DNA from: Candidatus Woesearchaeota archaeon
GTDB taxonomy: Archaea > Nanobdellota > Nanobdellia > SCGC-AAA011-G17 > JACPIM01
Length of the DNA: 64,000 nt
Assembly: GCA_043817645.1 (NCBI GenBank)
Contig: JBDRGP010000013.1
Location: 21,687 to 85,686, forward strand
Direction of reading: 5' to 3'
Shown: in pieces, positions 38,933 through 59,687 of the stretch
Layout: each line of letters starts with the position of its first letter
How positions within the stretch are numbered: position 1 is the first letter of the stretch
The notes under the pieces: generated by a model
What the model saw: the letters and a program-made list of their open reading frames with translations, nothing else
The model's database searches: none
What the model was told of the DNA's origin: nothing
Translations under genes and position numbers: made by a program

Positions 38933-38933
38933 T

Positions 38934-40855: not shown

Positions 40856-41663
40856 TTTCTTTAGGATTATTTAACTCTTCTAAATAATTAAGACCTCCTT
40901 GCATTATTTTGTATTTATAACCAATTTCGCTTTTTGTTCTATCAACCATTTTGGTTGCTTTTTTATTATTAAGGGCCATGCTAATTGATTCTTTTCTCGA
41001 AGGAACTCTAAATTTAGAAATCAATAAATTTGAAATCTGAGAAGCAGTTAGTCCATCTATATCTCCATCCTCTTTTGCTATTTTTAGCATTAGTAGTGCT
41101 CTATCCAAATCATTCTTTAGATCATGAAGAATACTATAAGAAGTCCTGTCTAACTTATTTTCTAGTTTTTCAAGTATAGGGTCTTTAGTTTTATCTATTT
41201 TGGATTTAGATTTCTTCTGTTTTACTTTTTTTGGCTTAATTTGTTTAATATTTCTGGTATCATAATCCTCTAAAATTGTATTGAGTATTTGTTCTATTTT
41301 ATATGGAATTATTTTATAACCTTCTTTAGTCTTCTCTATTAATCCTTCACTATTCAGCTCTGATAATTTACCCCAAATAGTACCCGCATTACCTTTTAAT
41401 TCTTGGATTATGCTTGATCCACTTAGGCTATCTGAATCTATAATTTTTATTTTTTCGTGTGCAGAGAAATATCTTCCCATTAACAATAAACAGATTTTCT
41501 CTTTTTCTATGAGCTTTTTTGGTTCTTTGAGTTCAACTCTAGCTGTTTTCTTATGTATGCTAAATAATTTTCCCGCTTTTGATATTAATTCATTCAGTTT
41601 TTCCAAAGTATCTTCTTCATCAACAAAAAGTTTGTTTAAGATCTTAGTTTCTTCATCACTCAT
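40842..41663 (-). CDS. tandem winged-HTH protein
   Basis: Two wHTH-like units (GTI.GKLSEL...GLI; GLTASQIS..L...F.....SIS.AL...Y.IM..G). Confidence 0.6.
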   Translation of the reverse strand: MSDEETKILNKLFVDEEDTLEKLNELISKAGKLFSIHKKTARVELKEPKKLIEKEKICLLLMGRYFSAHEKIKIIDSDSLSGSSIIQELKGNAGTIWGKLSELNSEGLIEKTKEGYKIIPYKIEQILNTILEDYDTRNIKQIKPKKVKQKKSKSKIDKTKDPILEKLENKLDRTSYSILHDLKNDLDRALLMLKIAKEDGDIDGLTASQISNLLISKFRVPSRKESISMALNNKKATKMVDRTKSEIGYKYKIMQGGLNYLEELNNPKENEQE

Positions 41664-42039
41664 CTTTGAACAACTCCTTGATTTTGTTTAGATTATAATT
41701 TGGGATAACATAACCACTATCATCTTTCTTGAGTAAGCTTTTGGCAATTCTTTTGATAACTGTTTTTGTTGAACCTACAGGGATATTAATGTCTCTGCTT
41801 ATTTGATGTTGACCAACGCCTTCAGTTTTAATAATATCTTTGATTTTCATAACCTTTCGAGACAATAAATAAACTATTACCTTTCTTTCATTATTCAATT
41901 TAAAAAAATCAGGTTCTAAACTTACATCTGCATCAGGAGTTATACGTATAAAATCTTTAAGTAGATTAGCAATTAATTCCTTATCAAATTCTTTCTTATT
42001 AGCTATTATTAATTTGTCTAGTACATCAGTCTTATCCAT
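41656..42039 (-). CDS. winged-HTH protein, paralog of the N-half of the neighbouring gene
   Basis: KL...KV.VYLL.R; IS....IP.GS.K..I; Y.IP.Y. Confidence 0.6.
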   Translation of the reverse strand: MDKTDVLDKLIIANKKEFDKELIANLLKDFIRITPDADVSLEPDFFKLNNERKVIVYLLSRKVMKIKDIIKTEGVGQHQISRDINIPVGSTKTVIKRIAKSLLKKDDSGYVIPNYNLNKIKELFKDE

Positions 42040-42373
42040 TTTTTAACCCCCCATTTAAAATTAAATGGTAAATATTAATGATATATTTTATTATGGATTT
42101 GGAGTCATTACTATTATTTAAGCTTTTCCATCATTGTATTTTAATATTTTAACATGTTGTGTATGTGAAAACCAAACTTATTTATAAAGATATCTATAAT
42201 TTATAATATAATAAAAAAATGGTTTTCTGAAATTACTGCTTATTGAGAAGGGAAATTACAATTTAAAGGGATATAATATCATCCTATTTAATATTATTAT
42301 ATTATTATCATAATAAAATTTTATATTGGTTTTTTAGAAATATTTATATAGAAAGGAAATATTCATAGAACCA

Positions 42374-42919
42374 ATGGCAAGGTGTATCAAATGTAATTAT
42401 CTTTTGGTGCTGTTGCCTAAACGAAACAAATACAAATGCAGTAAGTGTGGCAGTTTGTTTCCACAAAGTGATATAGACAACAAGGAATTCAGAAGTTGGA
42501 ACAAGAGACAGAGATTAGAAGACATTGAAAACATAAAACCAGCGAGAAAGCCAAGAGTAAAACTAAGTGATGACGAACGAAAAAGAAGAACTAAAGAATC
42601 TGCTAAAAAATGGAGAGAAAATAATAATAAAAGATGCAGAGAACTATCAGAAAAGAACTACTATAAAAACAGAGATAAAATCTTAGCCAGAAAGAAAGAA
42701 TACAGACAAGAGATAAAAGACAAGGACAGAATAAGAAGGAAAGAATACAGACATCAACAAATTAACAGAACAAGACAACTGGCAAGAATTCACTGGTGGA
42801 GACAAAAACAAAAGGCTTTAGCACTAAGAGAACTCAAAAACATGGAAGAGAAGGCTTGTAATGCCAATATATTCATTTCACCGCCCACTATTCTACATTA
42901 CCATCTACTTACAGAATAA
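42374..42919 (+). CDS. Zn-ribbon + basic coiled-coil protein whose 3' end overlaps the right TIR
   Basis: C..C...KYKC.KC; highly basic; last codons lie in the transposon end. Confidence 0.6.
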   Translation: MARCIKCNYLLVLLPKRNKYKCSKCGSLFPQSDIDNKEFRSWNKRQRLEDIENIKPARKPRVKLSDDERKRRTKESAKKWRENNNKRCRELSEKNYYKNRDKILARKKEYRQEIKDKDRIRRKEYRHQQINRTRQLARIHWWRQKQKALALRELKNMEEKACNANIFISPPTILHYHLLTE

Positions 42920-42924
42920 TAAGG

Positions 42925-42933
42925 CTTATAAAT
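42925..42933 (+). promoter_or_regulatory. archaeal TATA box for the 5S rRNA gene
   Basis: CTTATAAAT about 25-30 nt upstream of the 5S 5' end. Confidence 0.55.
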
Positions 42934-42955
42934 CCATATTATAGAGAAATTCTGT

Positions 42956-43126
42956 GGGCGACCATAGCTGCGGTGTAACACCTGTTCCCATTGGACCTGT
43001 TGGTTTTTAAGCCAATATCCGGGGAATTCGAACACAGAATTGGAAAATATCCGATGTGTAAAAGTTAAGACCGCATACGTTCCAGGCTGTACTGCACTTT
43101 GTTGTGGGAAACCTGGTTAGTTGCCC
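42956..43126 (+). rRNA. rrf: 5S rRNA gene with two internal insertions (putative BHB introns 42992-43026 and 43038-43061)
   Basis: Helix I GGGCGAC/GTTGCCC, CCATAG, helix II TGCGGT/ACCGCA, CACC.GTTCCCAT..CGAACAC.GAAGTTAAG after removing the inserts, loop E region GTACT...GGGAAA. Confidence 0.9.
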
Positions 43127-43127
43127 C
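43113..43127 (+). repeat. attL core (3' end of 5S rRNA)
   Basis: CTGGTTAGTTGCCCC. Confidence 0.85.
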
Positions 43128-43182
43128 TTTTATATTCTAGGTTCCCATTATTCTTATAAATTGACAAAATAACTGTTTCTGG

Positions 43183-44274
43183 ATGGGGGGAAGAACGCAT
43201 AAAGCTAAAGAGAGAAAGTATTACAACAAGTTAGAAGCCATCAAGACAGATAAAACTATCACTAAAGAGAATGTTAAATTAATCAATAAGTTCATGGAAG
43301 ATATTAGCTTGGGCATATCTTCTAAATGTGAAGTTGGGTTACCAACAAGATACAAATACCTCATAGATTTAGTTGTTGTTTCTAGGTGGTTCAATAAATC
43401 CTTTTCCAAAGTTAAATTTGAGGATATGAAAAGGATCATTGTTAAACTAAACAATGATGGATTCAAATCTGTAGCATTAAATAAACCATCTCAACCTTAC
43501 AGCGAGGAAACAAAAGCAAACATAAAGAGGTCAATTAAGAAGTTCTGGAAGTGGCTGTATATGAAGAAACCCGCAGAATATCAAAGAATAGCAGGGTGGA
43601 TTAAAACCAATGTAAAGGAAAAACTAGTAGACGCAGTTACAAGAGATGAAGCCAAGAAACTATTGAGCTTATGCGATAACGCTACTGAAAGATTTTTGAT
43701 TCAGGTTTTATGGGATGGTGGCTTTAGAATTTCAGAATTATTAAATGCACAGGTAAAAGACCTTATGGAGAAGAAGGAAGGCAACAAAAGGTATTATGTT
43801 CTTAATATTCACATTTCTAAAACTAGACCAAGACCTGTAGGCTTAAGATTATCAACTAAGGAGATAGAGGATTGGTTGCACGATGGACACCCAGATAGAT
43901 TAAAAGATAACTTTCAGGAGAGTTATTTATTTCCTCTTGAGTATGAGTATGTTAGAACCAAGGTAAAGGAGATTGGTAAGAAGGCAGGGATTCCATTAAA
44001 CCCTCATAAGCTTAGGCATAGCAGTTGTTCCTATTACTGCAACTTCTTAACAACTTCACAAATGTGTGTAAGATATGGGTGGAGTTTTAATTCTAAGAGT
44101 CCCGGAAGATACATCCATTCAAATGGGGTAGATGAAGGTAAAGCAACTGAGAGAGTCTATAATGATGAGTTTGCAGATTTTAGGACGCAATTAGAAGAGG
44201 AAAGAGAAAAAGTCAAGGAGCTAGAAAATAAGTTTGAGATACTGCATCAGGCAGTTATAATTAAATCAAAATGA
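43183..44274 (+). CDS. tyrosine recombinase/integrase
   Basis: G.RISELL (catalytic R), SKT (K), HKLRH, YGW, RY.H (catalytic Y). Confidence 0.93.
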   Translation: MGGRTHKAKERKYYNKLEAIKTDKTITKENVKLINKFMEDISLGISSKCEVGLPTRYKYLIDLVVVSRWFNKSFSKVKFEDMKRIIVKLNNDGFKSVALNKPSQPYSEETKANIKRSIKKFWKWLYMKKPAEYQRIAGWIKTNVKEKLVDAVTRDEAKKLLSLCDNATERFLIQVLWDGGFRISELLNAQVKDLMEKKEGNKRYYVLNIHISKTRPRPVGLRLSTKEIEDWLHDGHPDRLKDNFQESYLFPLEYEYVRTKVKEIGKKAGIPLNPHKLRHSSCSYYCNFLTTSQMCVRYGWSFNSKSPGRYIHSNGVDEGKATERVYNDEFADFRTQLEEEREKVKELENKFEILHQAVIIKSK

Positions 44275-44289
44275 ACAGGAGATGAAAAA

Positions 44290-44751
44290 ATGAAAAAAAT
44301 ATTAGCAATAGTTCTAGGTTTGTTCCTTGTTGGAGCGATATTTGTAATTGCAGAAGAAGAATCCACTAAAGCAGGAGGAATTCCTGCAAAATTAAATACA
44401 ATAATTGGACAGCTACAAGAAATATTAGACGATGGAGTAAATGCAAAGGTTGAGGGTGTTGATGATATGCCAAAAAGAGGCACTATTTTTGTACACAGAC
44501 TTAATCAGTATCATATATCTGGTGACCAGTATGTTACTCTACCCAATGGTCAATGTTCTATTTCAATATCTACAACAAGAGAACCTGAGGATGTTCGGGT
44601 GGAAGAAGCTAAATCTACTACTGAAATAAGAGATGGTTTTGATGGTAAAGATGGAATATTAAATATAGATGATGAATACTTTATGGCAAAATTATCAATA
44701 GAAGAACCAAGAACCCACCCATATTTGTATTTAGCTTACAATTGTGTTTAA
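44290..44751 (+). CDS. secreted hypothetical protein
   Basis: Signal peptide MKKILAIVLGLFLVGAIFVIA; GGAGA SD upstream. Confidence 0.7.
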   Translation: MKKILAIVLGLFLVGAIFVIAEEESTKAGGIPAKLNTIIGQLQEILDDGVNAKVEGVDDMPKRGTIFVHRLNQYHISGDQYVTLPNGQCSISISTTREPEDVRVEEAKSTTEIRDGFDGKDGILNIDDEYFMAKLSIEEPRTHPYLYLAYNCV

Positions 44752-44759
44752 AAATCAAA

Positions 44760-44855
44760 ATGAACCCACCTAAAGATTGGAGATTTTATGTGAAATGGGC
44801 TAGTCTGGGGATTATTGTGGCTAGCGCTATTCAATTGTTGAGGTTTTATGGGTAA
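44760..44855 (+). CDS. small membrane peptide copy 1 (31 aa)
   Basis: MNPPKDWRFYVKWASLGIIVASAIQLLRFYG; paralog at 46333. Confidence 0.5.
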   Translation: MNPPKDWRFYVKWASLGIIVASAIQLLRFYG

Positions 44856-44942
44856 ATGAAAGGTAATTCGGAGATAAAGGAGAAACCTATTTAAGTCCAA
44901 AAAACCCTCATTTCCTTCAAGAATCGCATAGGGGGGAGCTGA

Positions 44943-45731
44943 ATGAGAAGATTGCTTACAGGATTGCTTTTAATTAGTTTGTTAGTTCTGGCTGGTTGCG
45001 GGGCAGGAGGTATTGATGTTTCAAAATTATCTCCAGAAGATATTGACAAGGTAATAAAATGTGAACCACCTTACATTCGACATGCGTCAGGATGTTGCTT
45101 AGACCAAAATGAAAATAAGATTTGTGATGATGATGAAGGTGTAGACTCACCACCTACAGAACCTCAAGAACCAATAGAACCAGAAACTCCACCAGAGCCA
45201 GAAGAACCACAAGGAGAATTACCAGAACCAACTTCTAATTTAGATTTAGCTGATTATCCTCAACCCTTTCTAGATGAGAACAATATATTTAATCCCAAGA
45301 CTACGATTGTTGTGGGGGAATCTGCACCAGCCTCAGATACGATAGGTGCTGTGGATATCATGCAACAATTACAATTTGATGCTAAAAATTTAGATGGGAC
45401 ACCAATTGATATAGATATAGAAAGCAGAACGGACGCGGAATTATCGGGTTCTTATGAAAATTATGATTTGATTATAGTGAGCACTAAGTGTGTAAATGAA
45501 CTAATGGAAAAATTTGGATTCGATTGTAGTGAAGAGGGATGGGGGCTAGAAACGGGACAAGGATTGATACAACTAATGGAAAATGGAAATAATGTTGCCT
45601 TGATAGTAACAGGAACGAATGCGATGGATACAAGGGTTGCAACAAGAGTGTTAAAGAACTATAGGGATTATGATTTAAATGGAAACAGAGTAATAGTAAC
45701 AGGTAGCCTTAGTGACCCGGTAATAAGTTGA
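44943..45731 (+). CDS. lipoprotein with Cys-rich EF-hand-like motif, Pro/Glu linker and S-layer-like domain
   Basis: LAGC lipobox; CCLDQNENKICD; IVVG..APASD.IGA.DI; ALIVTG....DTR.A.RVL.NY. Confidence 0.75.
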   Translation: MRRLLTGLLLISLLVLAGCGAGGIDVSKLSPEDIDKVIKCEPPYIRHASGCCLDQNENKICDDDEGVDSPPTEPQEPIEPETPPEPEEPQGELPEPTSNLDLADYPQPFLDENNIFNPKTTIVVGESAPASDTIGAVDIMQQLQFDAKNLDGTPIDIDIESRTDAELSGSYENYDLIIVSTKCVNELMEKFGFDCSEEGWGLETGQGLIQLMENGNNVALIVTGTNAMDTRVATRVLKNYRDYDLNGNRVIVTGSLSDPVIS

Positions 45732-45771
45732 ATGTGGAGATGGTAGCATTCCAAGCTTAAGAGAGCACGAG

Positions 45772-46014
45772 TTGGAGAGTGTAAGTCGGACAGGTAAGAA
45801 ATATACCAAGCTTCATGAATGGATGGACTGTGCACAAGAGAGGCTAGGGGTTAGGCATAGGGAAGTTAATCACTCTAGCAATGACATTCCTAAAGTAAAG
45901 GAGTTCTGGAAGGATAATCCTAACGAGGCCGTGATAGAATTTCTATGCCACATAATAGCAGATTTTAGAGATACTTCAGATAAGCTTCTTAATAAAAGGA
46001 GAAGGAGAAAATGA
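45772..46014 (+). CDS. small His-rich hypothetical protein
   Basis: LHEWMD...RHR...H...HI.AD possible metal ligands; start uncertain. Confidence 0.55.
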   Translation: MESVSRTGKKYTKLHEWMDCAQERLGVRHREVNHSSNDIPKVKEFWKDNPNEAVIEFLCHIIADFRDTSDKLLNKRRRRK

Positions 46015-46331
46015 GGGAAGTTGATGAGAGATGGCATAAGGCCTTAGTTTTCTTTGCAGATAATAATCGTGCTAAAGCAATGGATATCAAAGAGAATGAT
46101 AATTCTTATTACAGAGGAATAGTTCCTCAAGAAGTAGAAAATACTTTGATTGAAATGGGACACATAGATTTTGAGTCAGATACAAGATATATTATAACTC
46201 AATCCGGTTTACAACAATTGAGGGGTCTAGATAAAATAAGCCATAGAGATTGGACTAGAATTATTGCTATAATTGCACTGATTGTATCCATCCTTTCCTT
46301 GGGAGTAACTCAAGGATGGTGGCTTAAATAA
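46011..46331 (+). CDS. hypothetical protein, wHTH-like + C-terminal TM
   Basis: L...G.I......Y.IT..G then a hydrophobic helix. Confidence 0.55.
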   Translation: MREVDERWHKALVFFADNNRAKAMDIKENDNSYYRGIVPQEVENTLIEMGHIDFESDTRYIITQSGLQQLRGLDKISHRDWTRIIAIIALIVSILSLGVTQGWWLK

Positions 46332-46332
46332 A

Positions 46333-46425
46333 ATGAGTCTCCCTCATAACTGGCAGTGGTGGGTGAAATGGTTTTCAATCGGGATTATCTTTGTTAGTTT
46401 GTTGAAGTTGTTGGGGGTTTATTGA
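46333..46425 (+). CDS. small membrane peptide copy 2 (30 aa)
   Basis: MSLPHNWQWWVKWFSIGIIFVSLLKLLGVY. Confidence 0.5.
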   Translation: MSLPHNWQWWVKWFSIGIIFVSLLKLLGVY

Positions 46426-46426
46426 T

Positions 46427-46807
46427 ATGAGAGATACAATATTGTTAATCATTGTAATAATTTTGTTGGCTGGCTTGACTCTTTTTACTTTTTCTCCAGC
46501 TAATGGCGGTATTATTGGTAGGAGTGTTAGAACGGCGGAATTACCATCTTTTGATTCGCCCACACAACCCTATGATAGTTTTTATGCAAGAGCGAAAACT
46601 AGAGAATTTTTAGAAAATAAAGGGTATGTGGATATACACATAACAGATATGAAGCAAATCCCGACTGATTGGTTTCTAAAGTCAGAAGCAACAAAAGATG
46701 GTTCTAGCTTTATATTAGTCACTCAAGTAAATAAACTAACAGGAGATGTTGATTGGCTTAGTAGTGGAAATGAGGAGGGAAGCAGGATGTTGGTTGGCCA
46801 AAAATGA
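46427..46807 (+). CDS. secreted/membrane-anchored hypothetical protein
   Basis: N-terminal TM then I.GR (ITG-like) motif common in DPANN surface proteins. Confidence 0.6.
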   Translation: MRDTILLIIVIILLAGLTLFTFSPANGGIIGRSVRTAELPSFDSPTQPYDSFYARAKTREFLENKGYVDIHITDMKQIPTDWFLKSEATKDGSSFILVTQVNKLTGDVDWLSSGNEEGSRMLVGQK

Positions 46808-47214
46808 CTAAGAGGAAAATATGGTTTTATTTGTTTTGGATATTACTTATTTTAAATGTAGGGGTAGGATTTTTTGTAGCAATTACATCCGGAGCGGAAA
46901 GCATCAGCAATATTCTAACCGGACGAACAGCGCAAGATATTGCCTTTGAAAAAGATCAAAGAGACGATGACAGATTTAATAATGAGATTATATTAGGTGA
47001 TTTAAATAAATTTGATAGATTGTGGACACACAAGTGTTTCAGAGTTAACAATACTATAAGAGATTTTTTAGGTATGGCTGAGAAAGCAAGAAGAGATAAA
47101 GATTATACTTTGGCGTATGATTATTTAGACAAAGTAGGAAGCCACCATTTCTATTGGAATATGTCCTGTATGGAAGATACAAAAGATAATATTTTTCCTC
47201 CCACATTTGATTAA
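46804..47214 (+). CDS. membrane-anchored hypothetical protein
   Basis: N-terminal TM, LTGR motif; ATGA overlap with the previous gene. Confidence 0.6.
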   Translation: MTKRKIWFYLFWILLILNVGVGFFVAITSGAESISNILTGRTAQDIAFEKDQRDDDRFNNEIILGDLNKFDRLWTHKCFRVNNTIRDFLGMAEKARRDKDYTLAYDYLDKVGSHHFYWNMSCMEDTKDNIFPPTFD

Positions 47215-47256
47215 TATTGTTTTTTATAGAAAAAGAAAATAAACAGACGGGGTTTA

Positions 47257-47508
47257 CTATATCTTTAAAAAAGAATACAAAACCTTCTTCCCCTTCTCAG
47301 AAATCTGGTAAAATCTAGCCATCCTGTCTTTAGGATTCAAGACTTTGACAAATCCTTTATTGACCAATTCCAAAAGGATCCTGCTGACAGAGGCACGATG
47401 GATCTTGAGCTCCTTGCTTATTCTTGTTGGTGTAGATGGCTTCTCTAATAGCTTCAATATTTTCACCTTTATCGGAGCCCTTTCAAGATAAGCTATGTCC
47501 TCTAACAT
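47257..47508 (-). CDS. ArsR/MarR-like winged-HTH regulator
   Basis: KILKLL..P.TP..IS..L.I....VSR.L.EL...G.V.......R.Y.I..KG; start reassigned to MLEDIAY. Confidence 0.8.
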   Translation of the reverse strand: MLEDIAYLERAPIKVKILKLLEKPSTPTRISKELKIHRASVSRILLELVNKGFVKVLNPKDRMARFYQISEKGKKVLYSFLKI

Positions 47509-47587
47509 ATATAACGAAGCGGTAACTTTAAATATATACTTAGGTAACATATGCGTAACATAGGAATAGAGATAAAAGAAAAATAAA

Positions 47588-48958
47588 ATGACCCAAGAAG
47601 AACATAAATATGTAGGTTTTTTTAAAGAATTAAAAACCACAGGAGTTATCTTAATTCTTTTGGGTATAGCTCATTTATTTCTCGGTGCGCTTTTGACTGA
47701 AATGGGGATAATATTAATTGTACTGGGTATTATCTCTTTCATTAATAAGAAACCACAAATGTTCATTATTTATGGTATTCTTTTAATTTTAATAGGCGTT
47801 ATGAATATATATTCCGTATTTTTAGGTAGTTCTATTGGTTGGTTTATATTAGCACTCTTCCAAGTATTTTGGGGTATAAAAGAAATAGGCTATTACAGTA
47901 AAGTGAAGGATTTAGTCCCTAAAACAAAAGAAAGTAGAAAAAAAGGTTTTGTATGGTATGGCACAAGAATTGGTTTTTGGGTAGTAATTTTTGGTTGGTT
48001 TGTTGATAAAATTATAACTTATACTTTATATGAGTATATCTTTTCCATTTTTTCCACTATAATTGGAATAATAATTTTGGTAGCCATATTATTCACCATA
48101 ATTGTTTCTATTATTCACTTAACAATATATAAAGATAAGGGTTTAGCAATTTCTTCACTACTTATCTGTTCAGTTATCTTAATTCTAACAATTCTGGCTT
48201 CTGTTTTTTTGGTTTCTTTAATGCAATATGCACCAATAGAAGAAAATCTTGAAATCGAAGTAGGAACTTTTTTACCATATTCTATGAAATTAAATGAAGG
48301 AGAAATAGTACACATAAACATAGAATCTGATAAGAATATGAACTTCTACTTTATGGATCTAGAAAATTATAATCTTTTAAAAGGAGATGATAAAAATTAT
48401 GAAATTTTTGTTGGGGCAGGGTGTTCTCAATTCGAAACAAAAAAATTAGATTGTAATTGGAAAGCATATAAAAGCGGAAAGTTTTATGTTGTTTTAATTA
48501 ACCTTGAAGACACTGTAGTTAATGCAAATATAAAATTAGAAAAAATAGATGAAGAAAACGCGATTATAAAACCAATAAAGACACAAGAAATACAGGGATC
48601 AACACAATTTCTAATCGACAAAGAATCATTAAAAGAAGAGAGGAATCACATAGACCTTATAAAAAATGATATAGATAAATTATTAGAAATATCTAGTAAA
48701 TACCAAGATTTAACAAGTGTTGATGACTCTGCTAATTTTATTTCTGAAATGACTCCAAGATTAAATATGCATAAAACTCATTTAATAGAATATAGAAATT
48801 TTCTTAATACTAAAAACTCTGTCATTCAAGATAAAACAGAATACATACAAAAACTTGATGATAGAATTGTTGAAGTGGATACGTATATTAATCAACTAAA
48901 CTTTGCAATGGCAGGGCAACTAAGGGGAGAATTGATTACGTGGCAAAGAAATTACTAA
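47588..48958 (+). CDS. multi-pass membrane protein with extracellular beta-domain and coiled coil
   Basis: About 7 hydrophobic helices then a soluble domain. Confidence 0.7.
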   Translation: MTQEEHKYVGFFKELKTTGVILILLGIAHLFLGALLTEMGIILIVLGIISFINKKPQMFIIYGILLILIGVMNIYSVFLGSSIGWFILALFQVFWGIKEIGYYSKVKDLVPKTKESRKKGFVWYGTRIGFWVVIFGWFVDKIITYTLYEYIFSIFSTIIGIIILVAILFTIIVSIIHLTIYKDKGLAISSLLICSVILILTILASVFLVSLMQYAPIEENLEIEVGTFLPYSMKLNEGEIVHINIESDKNMNFYFMDLENYNLLKGDDKNYEIFVGAGCSQFETKKLDCNWKAYKSGKFYVVLINLEDTVVNANIKLEKIDEENAIIKPIKTQEIQGSTQFLIDKESLKEERNHIDLIKNDIDKLLEISSKYQDLTSVDDSANFISEMTPRLNMHKTHLIEYRNFLNTKNSVIQDKTEYIQKLDDRIVEVDTYINQLNFAMAGQLRGELITWQRNY

Positions 48959-48997
48959 TCGTATTGTTAATTTTTATGTTATCTCTTTTGTAGTATC

Positions 48998-49037
48998 CAG
49001 AGATGATGATGGAATAGCTTGTGAGACTCTGCCGTGA
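48998..49037 (+). pseudogene. remnant of an Excalibur Ca-binding domain C-terminus
   Basis: Reads RDDDGIACETLP-stop with no intact upstream ORF. Confidence 0.4.
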
Positions 49038-49748
49038 CTCCACAAAAAGCTCTCCACAATCCCAGCAGAAGGTTTTAGAGCTTAACCATGAGCGACCGAA
49101 GGGAGCGAATTAGTAGAGGTTCTGCCACGCCGAAGGCTGGCAGGTTCTCCGTCGTAGTTTCCTATATCTATTATGCCTTAACTCATTATCTCTTCTTACA
49201 CGTAAAGTATGTGGGTGGAAATTAAGATATTGTGCCTCAATTAGTAGGATTTAGAATTATTCTCCAATAGATTCGATTTAAGAGGACTTTTTTCTATAAT
49301 ATATTTTTTCAGAATTTTTTCAGAATTTTTATAATATTTTTTTAAAATTTTTCCTGTCGAAACCATAACCAACATAACACCACGAACGCAAGACTCGTTA
49401 ATTCTATTGGTAACGGACTTCTCACCCTCAACCCGCCACTTGCTACGTGCCAAGTTGCCAAAGGTGAGTCGTCGTCGTTCCCCCCTTTGGGGGGACGCAG
49501 GGGGGGACGTATTAGAGCCATCCGCAGATGGCGATATATTAACTTTTGAACATCTACACCATATCCAATATCAGCACCAAACACACCATTATCACCAGAA
49601 AGAGAATTAAAAGAAAAAGAATATAGACGAACAATAAAAAAAGAGAAAGAGAGGTTAATCCTCTTCAATGCCTTTAATCTGTTCTAGCTCTCGAACACAA
49701 TAGATGCAATAGCCACAACAGTTTAAGTTTAGATCGTTCTTGCATCTT

Positions 49749-49958
49749 TTACAAGGCATTGGAATCACCCCCTTGTGTGTTTTCTATTGGTCTAAACTTA
49801 CAAGCTAATGTTTTGTTTTGTATCATCTTAAACACTTCTTGTTTAGATGTATAATACCACGTTCCATTGTGGACGCACTTGAAACCTTTACCTGCTTTTG
49901 TATGAAGCATGGTTATTTGTTTGTCTGTGCCTTTTGCATTTTCTAATGTTTTATTCAT
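49749..49958 (-). CDS. small hypothetical protein downstream of the hairpin cluster
   Basis: 69-aa ORF with GAGG SD-like sequence upstream on the minus strand. Confidence 0.55.
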   Translation of the reverse strand: MNKTLENAKGTDKQITMLHTKAGKGFKCVHNGTWYYTSKQEVFKMIQNKTLACKFRPIENTQGGDSNAL

Positions 49959-49989
49959 TTTTAAACCTCTTAAAGTACCATCTAATCGT

Positions 49990-50560
49990 GGAACTTCAGT
50001 TCGTTCACTCTAACTGAAGTGAGGAAGATGAAACCATTACAGACTGCGCGATACACTCTTGGAGCCGATAATTCTTTAGTCGCAACGACCCTCGCAGGGG
50101 AAAGATTTACGTGTGAGAAGAGTTATTATGCAGGGCTTGTCCTCTTGGTCTGTAATGGAGTATCTAGAAGTTCTCAACCATTCACTTTACTAAACGACTA
50201 CGGGGGGGCGTAGTCGGGGTTGAGGCACCCCTCAACCCTCACGTCGGCGGATGGGTTTTTTTACCCCATCCGCAACATCGGGATACGTGGCCAGAAGCTC
50301 ACCTTGTTCGAGCCGATATTATAAATGAAGCTGTCTGCAAGACAGCCGAGAGAACGTGCCTGAATCGAGGGCACTTCATTTATTTAGCGGTGAAGAATAC
50401 TCAACGACAATATATTCAGAGGCAGAGTACCCCCGCGTAAAAGCAAATGCTTTTAGGGGGCGGGGAGCTGATGGCCTAGAGAAGAAAAAACACTTCTTCT
50501 CCAATGCTAAAATTTAAAGGGCTAAAGAGAGGGATTAGGCACTATGAAGGTGCCTAAAAC
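49990..50560. other. GC-enriched non-coding cluster of hairpins (structured ssDNA/ncRNA candidate)
   Basis: About 10 stems, e.g. ACTTCAGTT/AACTGAAGT, CCATTACAGAC/GTCTGTAATGG, CGACTACG/CGTAGTCG, GGGTTGAGG/CCTCAACCC, GCGGATGGG/CCCATCCGC, ATAAATGAAG/CTTCATTTAT, TTAGGCAC/GTGCCTAA. Confidence 0.7.
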
Positions 50561-50612
50561 AGCTTAAAAAGTGGGTTTAACAAGAATTAGATGGACAATT
50601 GATCTACTAAAA

Positions 50613-50984
50613 TTATTTTGGTGGTCTAGGCGGTCTGGGTATTTTAGGTAAGTGAGATGGCCTGTCATCATCCTCATCATCTTCATCATCATAATCTATT
50701 TCTTCACCACCTTTAGTATAGATTGGTCGGCCTTTTTCATCTTCTTCAGTATCATCAGGTTCATCAGCTTCATCCATCTCCTCAAAATATTTTTCTTTGG
50801 CCTCTTCTTCTTTATTACGCCTCATATACCTTACAGCGTCTTCTTCATCTTCTTTTAGTAAATTTTCTGGGACTTCTATGCCTTCTTTAATACATTCCAT
50901 TATGGACTTGCCCGCTTTTCTTTCAAACCAATATCTATCTAAATCTCTTACTTCAAATTCTTCATGTGATGATGGTCTTGGCAT
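50613..50984 (-). CDS. highly acidic hypothetical protein
   Basis: D/E-rich 123 aa with Pro-rich tail. Confidence 0.6.
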   Translation of the reverse strand: MPRPSSHEEFEVRDLDRYWFERKAGKSIMECIKEGIEVPENLLKEDEEDAVRYMRRNKEEEAKEKYFEEMDEADEPDDTEEDEKGRPIYTKGGEEIDYDDEDDEDDDRPSHLPKIPRPPRPPK

Positions 50985-51151
50985 TTGGATCAGTTAATTC
51001 TCTTTCTTCAACGCTTTCAACACTAAGCGAGGATGGAAGACTCGCTTACCTGCATTTGGTTGTCGTGCAACCAAATGTGGAAGCAAGTATTTAAGCTTGG
51101 TTGTGTTGAAAGCGTCGCTTAAAACTTTTGATTATTGATTAAAAGGCGGGG

Positions 51152-51281
51152 GCTTATGATGGTATTGATGCTAAAGATAGCGGTGTCGGTAATGTTATTC
51201 TTATTCTTTTATTCTCTTATAATCATCATCAATACCATCAATACCGACAATACCATCAATACCGACATTACCATCATAAGC
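51152..51281. repeat. iteron-like 9-bp tandem repeats with inverted copies (putative origin)
   Basis: Five (ATC/GAC)A(A/T)TACC units at 51228-51272; inverted GCTTATGATGGTA (51152) / TACCATCATAAGC (51269-51281); AT-rich spacer. Confidence 0.65.
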
Positions 51282-52641
51282 TACTTGAATCAGGTAGCTT
51301 TATTGGTGTTTTATCCTTATACTCTTCAGAGACAACGTATTTCAGAACTGCATTTCCCCATGAGTCAGTCAAATCAAAGGTTTCTAAAACATCTTTATTC
51401 GCAAGGTCTTTAAGGTGATTGTATAAATTCCTACTTGTAATATATTTTTCTGTAAACTTGCTTATTTCAGTAGCACTCAGAGGGACATCAGATTTTTCTA
51501 ATGTTCCAACAATTCGCTTATCAATCTCCTTTAAAGGAATTGAATGAGCTCCAGAGCAGGAGTTCATAAATGGCTCTCTTGCTATATCATAATCTTCCCA
51601 CTCAGCGTCTATAATTTCCCCCTTATGATGTTCTCTATTCTCTTGGTGGAGTATGGCAATAGCTCTTATGTAATCTAAGAGTTTCTGAAAATATCTTCTA
51701 TACTTCACCTTATCAGAAGGAAATATCTCTCTTAATTTATTTGTGAAGGGGATATTAACTCTACACATCTTCAAGCCCTCAATAAAATCTAACTCTCCTT
51801 GATGATAATCTTCTTCCTCAAAAGAGAAGGTTCTTTTTGTCTGCTCTTCTGATTCATCAATTCCAATAACAGAAAATCTATTTAATATTTCAGATGTAGG
51901 TCTTGCAGTTGCGGATGTTAAAAACAGAACAGGGTTTCCCTTTATTTTTTCAACCTGCCCTCTATTATCGGCTACACTTCCAGACATCTTTTCAGCCGAA
52001 GTCAATATCTTCATTACATCATCATTCATAGTTTTTTCATTAACTTCTTCAATAGAAACAATCTTCCCATCATAAGTCCAATCTGGATCACTTCTTGCTG
52101 TGTGAATATGTTTTAATGCCTTTGCTGACATACTCCCATACATTTCAACATCACTATCAGGATGCAGTTTTAGGACAGAATCGATTAGATGGTCTTTCCC
52201 CGCACTTGAACCAGAAGTTATTAAAGCATTGAAAGAATAAGGTTTCTTGCCCTTAACTAATCTTCCGAGAGAGCATAAGAAAATTATTTCTTTTGCTATT
52301 TTATCACCAATATGTTTTTTTTCCAATACTCTATCTATAAAATGATTCCACAAGCCACCTTTTTCTAAACAGTGTTTAATTTCTTTAGACTCTACTATAA
52401 TTTTCTTATCTTTATCTAAAAAACCCTTTTTGAGCAAATCATAATTTTCATCAATCTCAAAACCTCTAAAATCTTTCAAGGTTGTTTCTATGAGCTTTCT
52501 TAAAGCATCTTCATTCCTGCAACTTCTTACAAAAGTTCTCAAATCATTAGTTCCCTTCTGCCCCAATCTAGTTCTATATTTTTTCAATAGATATAACTCA
52601 ACAAATTCCTTAAATTCCTTAAAGAAAGTATTATCTACCAA
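51274..52641 (-). CDS. P-loop/AAA+ ATPase with C-terminal wHTH, putative replicative helicase/Rep of the element
   Basis: Walker A SGSSAGKD, Walker B IVSIEE, E.LNRF arginine finger, C-terminal LSA.EI......R.LY.HL..L wHTH. Confidence 0.7.
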   Translation of the reverse strand: MVDNTFFKEFKEFVELYLLKKYRTRLGQKGTNDLRTFVRSCRNEDALRKLIETTLKDFRGFEIDENYDLLKKGFLDKDKKIIVESKEIKHCLEKGGLWNHFIDRVLEKKHIGDKIAKEIIFLCSLGRLVKGKKPYSFNALITSGSSAGKDHLIDSVLKLHPDSDVEMYGSMSAKALKHIHTARSDPDWTYDGKIVSIEEVNEKTMNDDVMKILTSAEKMSGSVADNRGQVEKIKGNPVLFLTSATARPTSEILNRFSVIGIDESEEQTKRTFSFEEEDYHQGELDFIEGLKMCRVNIPFTNKLREIFPSDKVKYRRYFQKLLDYIRAIAILHQENREHHKGEIIDAEWEDYDIAREPFMNSCSGAHSIPLKEIDKRIVGTLEKSDVPLSATEISKFTEKYITSRNLYNHLKDLANKDVLETFDLTDSWGNAVLKYVVSEEYKDKTPIKLPDSSSL

Positions 52642-52860
52642 AATTCATCACGCTCTCTTTTTCTATGATCCTGCTCGGCTTCGATTAATTGATCAATATT
52701 AATCACCACTCTTTCTTTGTATAGTATCATGATTTTCACCCATTTTTTAGAAAGAAAGTTTTAAATATTCCAAAAGACTCAGCATTTTTGAATTGACCTG
52801 TTGTCGATAGCTGTTCTGCTTGGAAAGATTTAATCTTTCCTTGCTTTTATTTTTTAAACA

Positions 52861-53052
52861 TCAACTCCTCTTCTTTTTTTTCTCTTGGTTTGGAAATTTC
52901 TCAAGCAATTTATTATTAACATCTTCAACTTGCCTAATTACTTCACTAATATCATCATCATCTAAAGTAATAGTCCAAGAGTATTTTCCCAATGCTGTTT
53001 TATTTAGCTTGATGGATGGTTGATGTAGGATCTTCTGAATTGTTGTTTCCAT
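52861..53052 (-). CDS. small hypothetical protein
   Basis: SIKL.KTA.G.YSW.I pattern; co-oriented with the helicase-like gene. Confidence 0.55.
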   Translation of the reverse strand: METTIQKILHQPSIKLNKTALGKYSWTITLDDDDISEVIRQVEDVNNKLLEKFPNQEKKKKRS

Positions 53053-53353
53053 TTATTTTTCCCTCTCTTCCTTGATAATCTTCTGAGATAGTTTTACTAT
53101 CTCATCCAGCCAGATTTCAGTTTCTTTGCTAAGCGCCATTACCATCTCCACAATATTTTTTTAGAGCTCGCCTCAAAATTGTTATTTTTGGTCTATCTTC
53201 CACATCTGCTTGTTTCGTAAGCAGTGCTTCATATTCCTGCCCTAGATCATATGCGTTTACCATCATGAACCTTTATGTAGAAATTATAGAAATTTGCTAT
53301 TTATATAGTTTTCTATACAAAAGTATATAAAGGTTCAAAACACAACATATAAA

Positions 53354-53872
53354 ATGATGAGAAAAACAGAAGCCCTAAAAATTGTTAAGGAATATCCTGA
53401 CCTAAAGAACAACATAGAAGTTTTAAATTTGGTTCTTCTTGATTTACAAAAATGGCTTTTAAGACATATGGCAATATACAAAAGACCAACCACAACACGT
53501 TCCTTCTTCACTAAGATAATGAATGATTTGTTTGCAAGGCGTATCAGGGGAGATCCTACAGGAGAGAGTGACATACTCGAGTCAGGAATTACACAAAAAA
53601 TCCCAGATAGACTTGTACCAGAATACGCTAAAAGATATAATGCTGCCTTGGAAGACGGAACAAGTCCAACTAATATAGTAGAGGACATAATTAAACCAAT
53701 CTTTAATAAACACAGATTACCTTATCCATCCTACAATAAGATAGAAAATGATTTAAAATGCCTTAAGGATTGGGGAATTTTCAGTAATTATAGAAGTGGG
53801 CCTAAAATATATTGGATAATAAACCCCAAGTTCTTTTTGATGTTTAAGAAAGACTTACATAGGCTTAAATAG
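53354..53872 (+). CDS. putative wHTH regulator, divergent from the replication module
   Basis: PSY.KI..DL..L..WG.......YW.INP. Confidence 0.55.
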   Translation: MMRKTEALKIVKEYPDLKNNIEVLNLVLLDLQKWLLRHMAIYKRPTTTRSFFTKIMNDLFARRIRGDPTGESDILESGITQKIPDRLVPEYAKRYNAALEDGTSPTNIVEDIIKPIFNKHRLPYPSYNKIENDLKCLKDWGIFSNYRSGPKIYWIINPKFFLMFKKDLHRLK

Positions 53873-53902
53873 GGCGGGAACCTTAATTCTTGGATGGGTA
53901 TG

Positions 53903-53917
53903 CTGGTTAGTTGCCCC
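53903..53917 (+). repeat. attR core (duplicated 5S 3' end)
   Basis: CTGGTTAGTTGCCCC identical to 43113-43127. Confidence 0.85.
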
Positions 53918-53993
53918 CTCTTTTCTAATTTAATCAAAAAGGTGAGCTGTAAAGTTAACGAGACCTGAGTTAAAAAAAATAATAGGGTGGCTT

Positions 53994-54155
53994 TCAGTCC
54001 TTTTCAATTATAAGCTTATTATCCTTGATTTCTGCTTCTAACTCCTCTCCAGACTTCCATTTAAGCTTTTCTACAAGCTTTGAAGGAAGGACTACCCAAT
54101 ACTTCTCGTATTTATTTCCCTTATATTCTCTACTTACTTGGCTCTGTAGTCTCAT
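53994..54155 (-). CDS. AbrB/MazE-type DNA-binding protein (53 aa), not in ORF track
   Basis: MRLQSQ.SR.Y....Y.KY.VVLP..LV.KL.WK.G.EL......KLII; ATGA-coupled to the IIG gene. Confidence 0.75.
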   Translation of the reverse strand: MRLQSQVSREYKGNKYEKYWVVLPSKLVEKLKWKSGEELEAEIKDNKLIIEKD

Positions 54156-56947
54156 TTTACGCTTCCCTCTATAATTTGTTTTTCTTTATCTGTAATGCCA
54201 TATAACTTATAGACTTTTCTATCAATTTCATCATCTATTTTTCTAATTTCTTCTTCAAGCTTTGCAGTTTCAAATGTTTTTTTATTTCCATACTCATAAA
54301 TTTTTTTGTTTAGCAAAATAATTCTATCAACGAGTTTTATAAAAATATTCTGTTGTTTTTCTTCAATTAGTTTAATAGGTATAGAACCAATGAAGTTGGA
54401 AGAATATTCAAAACAATTTCCCATTTTTTTGGCATTTTTTTGAGCAAAATGTTCTATATATTTAGAATTTAAAATAGCTAATAAAAATTTGAGGTTAATC
54501 TTCTTATTAGGTTTAAGTGTAATAGCAAATGATGTTGTCAAAGTCACATATCTTGTAGTACTATAAGCAAATTTATTATGAACTGACCTATAATAAGCAT
54601 ATATTTGCTCTTTAACTTCACTTCCAAACAAGTCCTCATTGTATCTAACAATCTCATACCAATTCAATCCTTCTTTTAAAACAGCATATCTCTTTTTAAT
54701 TATCTCCTTTTTGCTTTCCAAGTATTTTTTAACATTAGGGTATTCAACTAAATTAGTTCCTCGTTTAGTCCTTATTAGCAAATTATTTGATAATCTAAAA
54801 GAATATCTATAAATTGAAGAATCCTCAACTACTTTATCTAAAATCTCGTTTTCCAATTGTAGTTTTTTAGCTAAATCCTTTTCTATAACAAATATATTAT
54901 CATTTCCTGTGGCGATCCCCTTCCCAATGTTACATATGTGAGACAATGGTGTTGTTCCTGGTATCCTATCTTCTTCGAATCTCCAAGGTTTACTAGTTAT
55001 ATTGTCTTGTAATTCTTTTTTTATGATAAAACTAGTGGAAATATTATCGTTTTTTTTGGTTGTATCTAACATAAATTCATTTAATGCTTTTTCATCTTTT
55101 AACATTGCATACCAAAATTTATTTTTTTTTGGTTTGTGTTTTCTCAATATTAAAATACAAGTATCAACATTTGCTTCTTGAAATACTTTTATAGAACCAA
55201 AGTCTAGTATTTTTACAAGCTGGTATTTCTGCGTAATAAATTCACGCAGTTTATCAGCGTAGTGTGATTTCATAAAATAATTTGCAACAATAAATCCTAA
55301 ATATCCCCCTTCTTTCAATAATTTATTAGCTTTTTCTAAGAATAAGTACAGTACATCTGCTTTGCCCCTATAGGAATCATATGTCCTGTTAAAAAAATCA
55401 ACTTGAACTTTGTCTTTTAGAGTTTGAAGATTAAAGTAAGGTGGATTTCCAATTACAATATCAAAGCTTCCTTCTTGGAAATCATCATGCCATTTAAAAG
55501 CATTTAATCCAGCTATATTGCCATCATCAATTAAAGAATTTCCATGCTTAATATGTAAGTCTAATTCTTCTGGTAATCTTCTTTCAAATTCAGCAGCTTT
55601 AAGTAATAAGTTTAATTTAGTAATTTCAACAGCTTTATTATCTAAATCAACTCCATAAATATTCTTTTTTAGAATATCTGTTTTGATAGAATGGTGTCCT
55701 TGAAAATCTAATTTATGTTGAGTAGAATCTTTATATTTTGATAGAAACTCATATAAGTAGTCAAATGCTTTTATTAAAAAACTTCCAGAACCACAAGAGG
55801 GGTCTAATATTTTTATTTCTTTCGCTTTAATCTTTTTATCTTTAAGCAATTCTCCAATAGTATTTTTCACAATATAATCTACAATATAAGTTGGTGTGTA
55901 ATAAATTCCTTGCTCTTTTCTGTGTACTTGTCCATCTTTAAGTTTTGAACGACCAGATTTAGTTTGAGCAAGTATTTTACCTAAATATTGCTCATATACC
56001 TGCCCAAGAACATCTGCATCAATCCAATCAAAATTATAAATAAATCTCTTATCTTTTGATTCGTATAAGATATATGTAAGATTTTGCATTATTCTTCCAT
56101 TTACTTCTATTTTATCACAATCATTGTCTTTTGCAGGAGTAAAAAGTCCACTATTATAGACCTTATCATATACTTTAAATATGTCTTTTAAACGAGAATA
56201 TACTTTATTTTGTGGTAAATGTTTTAGTTCTTCCAATGAAATATTATTTGGATTAATGCCAATATCTTCACATCTTCTTATGAAAATAAGTCTATCTAAA
56301 ATTCGTTGGACTATCTCATCTTTGTTTTCAATAGAATACTCTTTTGGATAATTAGCTTCAATATCATCACTTATTAACTTTCTAGCATACATAAAATCTT
56401 TTAATAATTCTTTCCCTATAGAGATTCTTTGTTTTAGTCTTTGTTCTTGAGATGCTCTATTCAACAATTCGTTTTTTTCAAAGCTCTCTTTAGATAAATA
56501 GTATAAATCATCAAATCGACTGATATATTCTTCTGGACTATTAAATAATCTAAAAACTGAGTTTTTTTCATCTTCTACACAGAAAATCTTTAATGTCCTA
56601 AAATTAGTAGATACTGCAAAAGATATTCTTTTTGATAATGAGTAAGATATTACTTGCTTATCAGCTTCTTTGTCTAAGGATATGTTTACTTGTTTGACTT
56701 CTAGGTAGAAAACTATTTTTTCCCCTATCTTAAAAGCATAATCAGCATGTCCTGTTTTTTGACCTCTTTTGGCTTTAGCCTGTTTTTCAAAGTCTTTTTT
56801 AGACCACCCTAACACACCTATAAACAGTTCTTCAATTAGCTTGGTCTCTACATTAGCCTCAAGCATTTTGTAATATTTTTCTTTGTTAGAATTATAATCA
56901 TTAACTAGCTTCTTTAGCTTAATTAATGCTTCTTCTTTTGTTGCCAT
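54152..56947 (-). CDS. Type IIG restriction-modification enzyme (fused REase-N6 MTase-TRD)
   Basis: N-terminal ADY...F.LEVK nuclease, G.YYTP, LDPSCGSG.FL, YGVD, IGNPPY, C-terminal TaqI_C-like TRD. Confidence 0.92.
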   Translation of the reverse strand: MATKEEALIKLKKLVNDYNSNKEKYYKMLEANVETKLIEELFIGVLGWSKKDFEKQAKAKRGQKTGHADYAFKIGEKIVFYLEVKQVNISLDKEADKQVISYSLSKRISFAVSTNFRTLKIFCVEDEKNSVFRLFNSPEEYISRFDDLYYLSKESFEKNELLNRASQEQRLKQRISIGKELLKDFMYARKLISDDIEANYPKEYSIENKDEIVQRILDRLIFIRRCEDIGINPNNISLEELKHLPQNKVYSRLKDIFKVYDKVYNSGLFTPAKDNDCDKIEVNGRIMQNLTYILYESKDKRFIYNFDWIDADVLGQVYEQYLGKILAQTKSGRSKLKDGQVHRKEQGIYYTPTYIVDYIVKNTIGELLKDKKIKAKEIKILDPSCGSGSFLIKAFDYLYEFLSKYKDSTQHKLDFQGHHSIKTDILKKNIYGVDLDNKAVEITKLNLLLKAAEFERRLPEELDLHIKHGNSLIDDGNIAGLNAFKWHDDFQEGSFDIVIGNPPYFNLQTLKDKVQVDFFNRTYDSYRGKADVLYLFLEKANKLLKEGGYLGFIVANYFMKSHYADKLREFITQKYQLVKILDFGSIKVFQEANVDTCILILRKHKPKKNKFWYAMLKDEKALNEFMLDTTKKNDNISTSFIIKKELQDNITSKPWRFEEDRIPGTTPLSHICNIGKGIATGNDNIFVIEKDLAKKLQLENEILDKVVEDSSIYRYSFRLSNNLLIRTKRGTNLVEYPNVKKYLESKKEIIKKRYAVLKEGLNWYEIVRYNEDLFGSEVKEQIYAYYRSVHNKFAYSTTRYVTLTTSFAITLKPNKKINLKFLLAILNSKYIEHFAQKNAKKMGNCFEYSSNFIGSIPIKLIEEKQQNIFIKLVDRIILLNKKIYEYGNKKTFETAKLEEEIRKIDDEIDRKVYKLYGITDKEKQIIEGSVK

Positions 56948-56953
56948 ACACTT

Positions 56954-57056: not shown

Positions 57057-57064
57057 AAGATAGA

Positions 57065-58395: not shown

Positions 58396-58397
58396 TT

Positions 58398-59666: not shown

Positions 59667-59687
59667 ATTAAGATAAAGAAAAAGACT

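Follow-up and report, generated by a model that had tools for sequence, protein, structure and literature searches.

A tyrosine-integrase element bounded by the 3′ end of a 5S rRNA gene in a woesearchaeal genome

The stretch of DNA analyzed here (the window) comprises 64,000 nucleotides of a Candidatus Woesearchaeota archaeon (contig JBDRGP010000013.1 of assembly GCA_043817645.1) and contains a 10,790-bp element delimited by two copies of a 15-nucleotide repeat, the first of which forms the end of a 5S ribosomal RNA (rRNA) gene and lies just upstream of a tyrosine integrase gene that reads away from it. We find it to be a genuine integrative element, exact in its bounds and belonging to a known kind, and probably a plasmid- or virus-like one that is still mobile and was integrated when its integrase joined the core of the element's attachment site (attP) to the last 15 bp of the 5S gene, which served as the chromosomal site (attB); the reading of the 5S gene as the target is supported, with the element described here as its single instance. 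A first-pass annotation, made from the letters of the window, had put forward such an element and an unusual specificity of its integrase for an rRNA gene, and both the repeat and the integrase, together with empty sites lacking the element, now lend support to that proposal, again for one instance.

Results

Boundaries and integrase of the element

The 15-mer CTGGTTAGTTGCCCC is found at 43113-43127 and at 53903-53917, both times on the forward (+) strand and in exact copy, and it is the distance between the two that gives the element its length. The first copy, the core of the left junction (attL), is made up of the last 15 nucleotides of the 5S gene, namely the 3′ strand of helix I and one further base, and the second is the core of the right junction (attR). 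In 100 shuffles that preserved the dinucleotides of the window, two matches to the 15-mer never arose, and with up to two mismatches allowed these two sites are the only ones in the 1,097,220-base genome (38 contigs), where the reversed-pattern control gave zero; allowing three adds one site at 25282-25296 on the minus strand, which is at chance level (mean 0.49 per shuffle). Extended leftward, the likeness holds at 20 of 23 positions (repeat family D13). The repetition of the 5S end 10.8 kb downstream, on which the first-pass annotation had built, is confirmed for both copies and proves unique in the genome, in which the element itself is present once. Direct repeats consequently stand at both of its ends and one of them is the 3′ end of a whole RNA gene, as in site-specific integrative elements at the ends of stable RNA genes. 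Not a single transfer RNA (tRNA) gene was detected in the 64-kb window and the gene at attL is the 5S gene, so the element does not belong with those that target a tRNA or transfer-messenger RNA (tmRNA) gene.

The integrase gene (43183-44274, + strand; 363 amino acids [aa]) begins with an ATG 56 nucleotides after the attL core, as had been noted before. Its assignment as a tyrosine integrase, also made earlier, holds: residues 152-287 match PF00589 with 48.3 bits (cut-off 27.1; E 1.3e-12), PHROG integrase families 216 and 1 are matched at E 1.7e-16 and 4e-16, and in an alignment of 32 sequences R182, R278, and Y310 are invariant, with K213, H275, and W300 at least 90% conserved. By the catalytic roles that we take these six residues to play, the catalytic set is complete and the enzyme looks intact. 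An identity as a chromosome-dimer resolvase of the XerA, XerC, or XerD type was considered and ruled out, as the scores lie far below the NCBIfam cut-offs (72.1 vs. 220 bits for XerA and 52.7 vs. 329.6 for XerD). A self-splitting integrase of the SSV type was likewise ruled out: the open reading frame (ORF) is uninterrupted, it aligns end to end with its homologs, and the core lies 56 nucleotides upstream, so that attP is external to the gene, which integration leaves undivided. A TATA-box-like TTATAAAT at 43154-43161 (+), 22 nucleotides ahead of the integrase ATG, points to a leaderless messenger RNA, and the same box at 42926-42933 (+) precedes the 5′ end of the 5S gene by 21-23 nucleotides; read against the archaeal TATA consensus, the two are putative promoters.

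Unoccupied sites in a relative and in nature

One further species of the genus, G001, was available for comparison; its 5S gene is followed by some 42 nucleotides and then directly by a homolog of window positions 58691-59975 (71% over 1311 nucleotides), which means that the window carries 15.5 kb of extra DNA at this place. A single 15.5-kb element was considered and ruled out, as the last 4.75 kb are a separate transposon (53942-58690) that lies outside the element, 24 nucleotides past attR, and has 33-nucleotide terminal inverted repeats of its own (82% complementary) as well as an AAAAAG target duplication; this transposon is not found at the same site in G001. When both the element and the transposon were removed in silico, 192 of 253 alignment columns were identical to G001 (score 267), as against 148 of 242 for the unmodified window (score 115.5) and 155 of 229 after removal of the element alone (score 120.5). 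Because the double removal aligns best, the 24 nucleotides that follow attR (53918-53941, + strand) can be taken as the original DNA downstream of the 5S gene, which resumes at 58691. The first-pass annotation had asked whether a close relative without the element would show a different sequence after its 5S gene; what follows the 5S gene of G001 is the homolog of the attR flank.

Only two public sequencing runs matched the stretch (X1 and X2, with 5-6% of the sampled words each), and their contigs were compared with positions 42000-59500 at a likeness threshold of 85%. In X1, a groundwater metagenome, host flanks are present with no differences, for example at 42000-42353 and 58690-59500, and so are pieces of the transposon (54070-54797, 55372-55837, 56634-57212, and 57577-58266). 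One X1 contig, with a depth of 6.9, joins 43112 to 53903 and skips 10,790 bases; 15 letters at the joint fit both sides and the shorter side has 41 letters, and depth in this run is zero across the first 584 bases of the element (43168-43751). The contig is an exact empty attB, the very junction that had been suggested as a check, and the data show that the host occurs in nature both with and without the element. Short pieces of host and element, again with no differences, come from X2, and the interior of the element is covered patchily in both runs. The remaining joints in X1 and X2 have sides of 20-21 letters and resemble repeats or other organisms, and no joint from 53917 to 43128, as in a closed circle, is listed among these contigs, a form of data that drops rare forms.

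These comparisons bear on two readings that do without site-specific integration at the 5S gene. According to one, the two 15-mers are a repeat that arose by chance or slippage and the empty forms reflect deletion between the repeats or ancestral loss, and it draws on the mere 15 bp that the junctions share, on the missing circular form among the X1 and X2 contigs, and on a base composition that matches the host: GC content is 0.348 in the element and 0.340 in the genome (SD 0.013 over 10.8-kb chunks), 24% of random chunks have an equal or higher value, and the tetranucleotide correlation of 0.971 lies within the genome's spread, with 12% of random chunks lower. A foreign origin by base composition was accordingly ruled out, both the GC content and the tetranucleotide profile being host-like, and the apparent GC contrast in the window arises because the left flank is unusually AT-rich (GC 0.28 at 26000-43000). 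Yet a chance repeat would have to be unique in 1.1 Mb, to coincide with the 3′ end of a structural RNA and with an apparently intact integrase that lies 56 nucleotides off, at the distance and in the direction usual for its family, to enclose a replication (Rep) protein, a candidate regulator, and an iteron region, and to share its exact bounds with the segment lacking from another species and from a co-occurring population; we regard it as very improbable.

The other reading is that of an assembly artefact, in which a free element was stitched into the chromosome at the shared 15-mer. In its favor, the genome is a metagenome bin, and the two matching runs, available in contig form, account for just 5-6% of the words sampled; such an artefact, however, requires two separate misjoins at one 15-mer by assemblers, which typically use words longer than 15, and it would have placed the element in the interior of a 123,925-base contig. 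Moreover, the attP of a free element would still hold the 5S end, leaving the 5S gene as the target all the same. We consider an artefact of this sort scarcely credible, and return to an element integrated at the 5S gene.

The gene at the left junction

The 5S rRNA gene (42954-43129, + strand) is expanded to 176 nucleotides, as delineated by Rfam RF00001, an alignment with eight other 5S genes, and the predicted fold. It matches RF00001 over model positions 1-120 at 38.1 bits, a borderline value next to the gathering score of 38 (E 3.1e-6), and does so with permissive filters and in the genome-wide search only, the default Rfam scan of the window having reported nothing and missed the gene. 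The low score results from about 60 extra nucleotides, which by comparison with eight other 5S sequences form two insertions, one of about 36 nucleotides in loop C and one of about 24 nucleotides on the 3′ side of helix III, following ACAGAA. In the predicted fold helices I, II, and IV/V are kept, with 42956-42962 paired to 43120-43126 in helix I, and each insertion forms a hairpin of its own. A covariance model of our own (R1) gives the gene 107.7 bits, with the gene itself among its training sequences. That the 5S gene is intact at attL, as had been proposed, is borne out by the full-length RF00001 match and by a fold that preserves helix I. Both places of insertion are reported hot spots of expansion in prokaryotic 5S rRNA (PMC7812874), and none of the four DPANN-related terms looked for in that survey occurs there.

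All 16 relatives searched have one 5S match apiece. The single genes of the same-genus G001 (147 nucleotides; L009 1497-1643) and of G005 (148 nucleotides; L010 1498-1645) have the second insertion only, two further relatives also have long genes (148 nucleotides at G003:C17:1145-1292 and 144 at G020:C10:10260-10403), and those of the remaining relatives measure 114-117 nucleotides. The window gene is closest to the sole 5S gene of G001, and its end, CTGGTTAGTTGCCC, is common to the host and to the relatives G005 and G006. The genome of the window nevertheless yields a second RF00001 match, a 115-nucleotide gene on an 8-kb contig (G000:C36:7795-7909; L001 1501-1615) that scores 59.8 bits, has the canonical length, and forms the most divergent row of the 5S alignment; it is a contaminant of the bin or else a genuine second type of 5S. 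We take the window gene as the host's own, with some doubt left, because the relatives have one 5S gene each that resembles it, whereas the C36 copy is divergent and the bin has an estimated contamination of 3%; the window gene is probably the only 5S gene of the host.

The doubt concerns a reading in which the insertion is real and the 5S gene beside it is redundant or decaying, so that the C36 gene would be the working copy and the target would carry no meaning for the ribosome. Two RF00001 matches, the higher of which belongs to C36 (59.8 vs. 38.1 bits), and two insertions in the window copy speak for it. One 5S gene in each of 16 relatives, however, argues the other way, as do the likeness of the window copy to them (its second insertion recurs in G001, and expanded genes of 144-148 nucleotides in G003, G005, and G020), the preservation of helices I, II, and IV/V with the insertions set apart as hairpins at reported hot spots (PMC7812874), and the origin of the C36 copy, the most divergent row, from an 8-kb contig in a bin with an estimated contamination of 3%. 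We therefore judge a redundant 5S gene to be unlikely and favor integration at the host's own gene.

Target sites across the integrase family

An exhaustive HMMER search returned 1077 relatives of the integrase at E ≤ 1e-10, the best with 38-40% identity; a word-based protein search returned four relatives only, and pattern scans based on the one protein found no close ones among metagenome, genome, or viral contigs. For the analysis of target sites we assembled 171 loci, 80 from genomes and 80 from metagenomes by alignment-based scans and 11 from relatives. By record title many of the 160 loci from the scans belong to Woesearchaeota, Pacearchaeota, and Nanoarchaeota, and many to diverse bacterial bins. 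DPANN-type archaea thus have the family in common with many bacterial bins, among them Zixiibacteriota, Ignavibacteria, and Verrucomicrobia, with 26-37% identity to the integrase of the element (L041-L120), and some of these bins may be mobile contigs that were wrongly assigned.

A same-strand tRNA gene, detected with ARAGORN, ends 42-132 nucleotides upstream of the integrase in 26 of 160 loci, with Asp-GTC the most common, and the same placement is seen in 3 of the 11 loci from relatives. Among 118 loci without a whole tRNA, 29 have tRNA fragments of 13-34 nucleotides upstream, 24 of which reach the tRNA 3′ end, compared with 2 of 118 controls drawn from within the integrase gene; since the tRNA set was small (58 genes), the count of fragments is a lower bound. 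The expectation that homologs might sit at tRNA sites, which the first-pass annotation had coupled with the 15-mer being a chance duplication, is met as far as the sites are concerned (26 of 160 with whole tRNAs and 29 of 118 with fragments). It does not make the 15-mer a product of chance, because the geometry is the same in the window: the 3′ end of an RNA, a distance of about 40-130 nucleotides, and an integrase that reads away. The element obeys the rule of its family, by which a stable RNA ends a short way before the integrase gene, and does so with a different RNA, the only such case that we found. Among 240 genomes of the order, that of the window alone has two copies of the 5S-end motif CTGGTTAGTTGYCY, and six others have a single copy.

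In the attP reconstructed from the two junctions, an 8-mer GGGAACCT (53876-53883, + strand, 19 nucleotides ahead of the attR core) stands 19 nucleotides before the core as the left arm of an inverted repeat, and AGGTTCCC (43139-43146, + strand, 37-44 nucleotides upstream of the integrase start) stands 11 nucleotides after it as the right arm, with a spacer of 45 nucleotides. The two sequences are present as the first-pass annotation had them. Its further step, which saw recombinase binding sites in them, follows poorly from the pair by itself (when random sequences of 60 and 55 nucleotides were compared in 20,000 trials, 7-9% of the pairs had a perfect inverted repeat of at least 8 nucleotides) and becomes more plausible with the family-wide pattern. 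Of the 113 loci that lack a whole tRNA, 60 have perfect inverted repeats of at least 8 nucleotides with a spacer of 20-70 nucleotides, no more than 200 nucleotides upstream of the integrase, and in 35 of those 60 the repeats reach at least 9 nucleotides; shuffled controls gave 87 of 680 (13%) and 21 of 680, respectively. The corresponding numbers for loci with a whole tRNA are 3 and 0 of 23, as expected because at such loci the left arm should sit at the far end of the element, and many of the loci without one are probably free elements that display their attP. Across the family (L041-L200) the arms are often similar to TGTAACAAA and TTTGTTACA, lie about 33 nucleotides apart, and bracket a core derived from a tRNA. 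It is these inverted repeats around the core that give weight to the 8-mers of the window, the right arm of which, at -44, is near the edge of the family range (typically -45 to -75), and we regard GGGAACCT and AGGTTCCC as probable candidate integrase-binding sites. A search of IMG/VR for an attP-like pattern (the 5S end followed by the right arm) returned no match.

Other genes of the element and its surroundings

Six ORFs follow the integrase (44290-47214, + strand; 153, 262, 80, 106, 126, and 136 aa), most of them with N-terminal hydrophobic or signal-like segments as judged by eye. The 262-aa product has a weak S-layer-like domain match (PF05124, E 6.5e-6), and the other five match no family in Pfam or PHROGs. 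A winged-helix DNA-binding protein of the TrmB/MarR type (47257-47640, minus strand; 127 aa; PF01978, E 1.3e-6, and related helix-turn-helix families), homologs of which adjoin integrase homologs in nine other loci, is a candidate regulator of the element. It is followed by a multi-pass membrane protein with a coiled-coil-like tail (47588-48958, + strand; 456 aa), for which Pfam, PHROGs, and NCBIfam gave no family. The stretch at 48960-50600, delimited by composition and the ORF map, is poor in ORFs, has a GC content of 0.38-0.42, and abounds in G-runs and in hairpins rich in G and C; no Rfam family matches it and nothing in the loci compared resembles it, and it could be a noncoding RNA, a set of decayed genes, or a regulatory region.

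The P-loop replication-type protein (51274-52641, minus strand; 455 aa) is defined by PF27228, the MTBMA_p00010 P-loop domain. It has 81 homologs at E ≤ 0.001, its own record excluded, with up to 63% identity and mostly on short contigs, and one of them is fused to the PrimPol domain PF09250; six IMG/VR contigs also carry homologs, and PF27228 clusters in a protein atlas are often Toprim/DnaG primase fusions and often labeled viral. A PDB sequence search and NCBIfam gave nothing useful for this protein, whose domain matches place it in a family characteristic of plasmids and viruses. Its gene has at its 3′ end two 43-nucleotide arms of 9-nucleotide iteron-like repeats of the CAATACC type (51152-51281; I1), inverted about a 44-nucleotide AT-rich spacer. 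Repeats of the same type are found just past the gene of a 45%-identical homolog on an IMG/VR contig (L201, 2402-2462), a recurrence that suggests conserved origin iterons, and the region is a candidate replication origin. The last gene before attR (53354-53872, + strand; 172 aa) matches no family in Pfam, PHROGs, or NCBIfam. With these three collections no virion hallmark gene, whether for capsid or packaging, was recognized and most cargo proteins match nothing, so the element may be a plasmid or a virus.

The neighboring transposon encodes a type IIG restriction-modification enzyme of the Eco57I-like kind (54152-56947, minus strand; 931 aa), an IS6/IS240-like DDE transposase (57041-57937, + strand), and a 153-aa ORF, and a diverged part of the transposase gene is also found on contig C29 of the genome. 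On the other side of the element, positions 26000-43000 form a 17-kb stretch with a GC content of 0.23-0.31, well under the genome mean of 0.34. The archaeal genes of the window include Rpr2/Rpp21.

Discussion

The structure of the element suggests a course of events of the kind familiar from tRNA-targeting integrases. In the free circle, the attP, composed of left arm, 15-bp core, and right arm, would adjoin the integrase gene, and the GGGAACCT and AGGTTCCC arms around the core would bind the integrase. The enzyme would pair the core with its exact counterpart, the last bases of the 5S gene, and exchange strands inside it, and because the crossover falls within an identical block the 5S gene would be rebuilt at attL, now backed by the T-run of the element (TTTT, 43128-43131). 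The displaced original 3′ end, together with the old downstream DNA, would thereby come to lie at attR, 10,790 bp downstream. Excision would be the reversal of these steps, and the excised circle would replicate from the iteron region beside the P-loop Rep. We infer from the junctions, the integrase, and its family that this integrase catalyzed the insertion and is specific for the 5S gene, and excision at the present day appears likely on the same grounds.

Several observations weigh against this reading or limit it. Taken alone, the pair of 8-mers does not exceed chance (7-9%), and its spacer of 45 nucleotides departs from the family's usual value of about 33. The empty site in X1 is one short contig found at 85% likeness, the composition of the element is that of its host, and the genome is a metagenome bin with an estimated contamination of 3% in which a second, different 5S gene lies on C36. 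No 5S gene was found beside family integrases in any of the 171 loci with a covariance model built on nine archaeal 5S sequences, the power of which on bacterial loci is unmeasured and both positive matches of which are training sequences; Rfam applied to the 20 closest loci gave three tRNAs and no 5S. The suggestion that homologs, too, might be found next to 5S genes is not borne out by these 171 loci, and no fragment of the 5S core was found next to the family integrase genes in them, nor was a second duplication of the 5S end seen in the 240 genomes of the order. The specificity for the 5S gene consequently rests on one event, and in a FastTree phylogeny of 160 rows the branch of the integrase is so long (1.15), and its neighbors so lacking in support, that the tree does not reveal a switch from a tRNA target. 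We put forward only tentatively, and at somewhat less than even odds, the broader proposal that this is the first natural rRNA-gene attachment site for a tyrosine integrase, with a member of a tRNA-targeting family retargeted to the 3′ strand of 5S helix I.

In most respects the element is the counterpart of tRNA-targeting tyrosine-integrase elements, such as the integrated plasmids and proviruses found in archaea and bacteria, with which it shares a tyrosine recombinase, a core at the 3′ end of a stable RNA, an RNA gene that is rebuilt, an integrase next to attL that reads away from it, and short direct repeats that bound the element; by sequence, its integrase is a member of a family with sites at tRNA 3′ ends. 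It differs in its target, a 5S rRNA gene, which is seen in none of the 171 other family loci. Specialization on an rRNA gene as a safe and conserved site is also a property of eukaryotic elements of the ribosomal DNA (rDNA), namely the R1 and R2 retrotransposons and Pokey, which insert into the 28S gene by reverse transcription or transposition, inactivate the copy that they enter, and rely on there being hundreds of rDNA copies. Here, in contrast, a site-specific recombinase preserves what is probably the sole 5S gene of its host.

Among elements with other targets, the temperate Enterococcus phage phiEf11, which integrates at ffs (4.5S or signal recognition particle RNA), likewise has an attB in a structural RNA other than a tRNA and an identical core near its integrase, but is a bacterial phage with a 27-nucleotide core and experimentally confirmed lysogeny (PMC12540744). 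Integrases of the SSV type are also archaeal tyrosine recombinases of integrative plasmids and viruses and usually have RNA genes as targets, but their attachment site lies inside the integrase gene (PMC7253208), whereas here attP lies outside and the integrase is whole. The sublocation classes of integration into tRNA genes go back to Williams 2002 (cited in PMC12540744), and in the accessible text of the same 2025 paper the known noncoding RNA targets are tRNA/tmRNA and csRNA, with ffs added as novel and 5S unnamed. The TIGER/Islander census of 1.75 million islands, in the part available to us, sorts them into tRNA/tmRNA, coding, and intergenic classes, with none for rRNA (PMC12424338). In the full-text literature, a scope outside which subscription journals and supplements fall, we found no paper in which an integrase is described as having its attachment site in a 5S rRNA gene. 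As found in the literature searched, it is the class of target that is new, elements of this kind not being known to use an rRNA gene, and the mechanism itself is a known one.

Integrases are cataloged by their target sites, and used in genome engineering accordingly, and the surveys behind such catalogs cover islands in tRNA/tmRNA or protein genes; tools limited to tRNA and tmRNA would miss targets in 5S genes. An integrase specific for 5S genes would extend such catalogs by a new class of conserved landing site, present in one copy per small genome and near-identical across a family of organisms, and would provide a natural experiment on how tRNA-targeting recombinases change their specificity. 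If the broader proposal is true, what is known as the tRNA rule would become a rule on the conserved 3′ ends of stable RNA genes, and in a host with a single 5S gene the element would sit directly behind a promoter that ranks among the cell's strongest, where read-through could tie expression of the integrase to ribosome synthesis. For the DPANN-type archaea, whose mobile elements are barely known, the window offers a complete element for which both ends, the integrase, the regulator, the replication protein, and a likely origin are defined, and, with expanded 5S rRNAs in this lineage, a restriction-modification transposon, and an attP layout that extends across the integrase family, a view of genome flux in these tiny cells.

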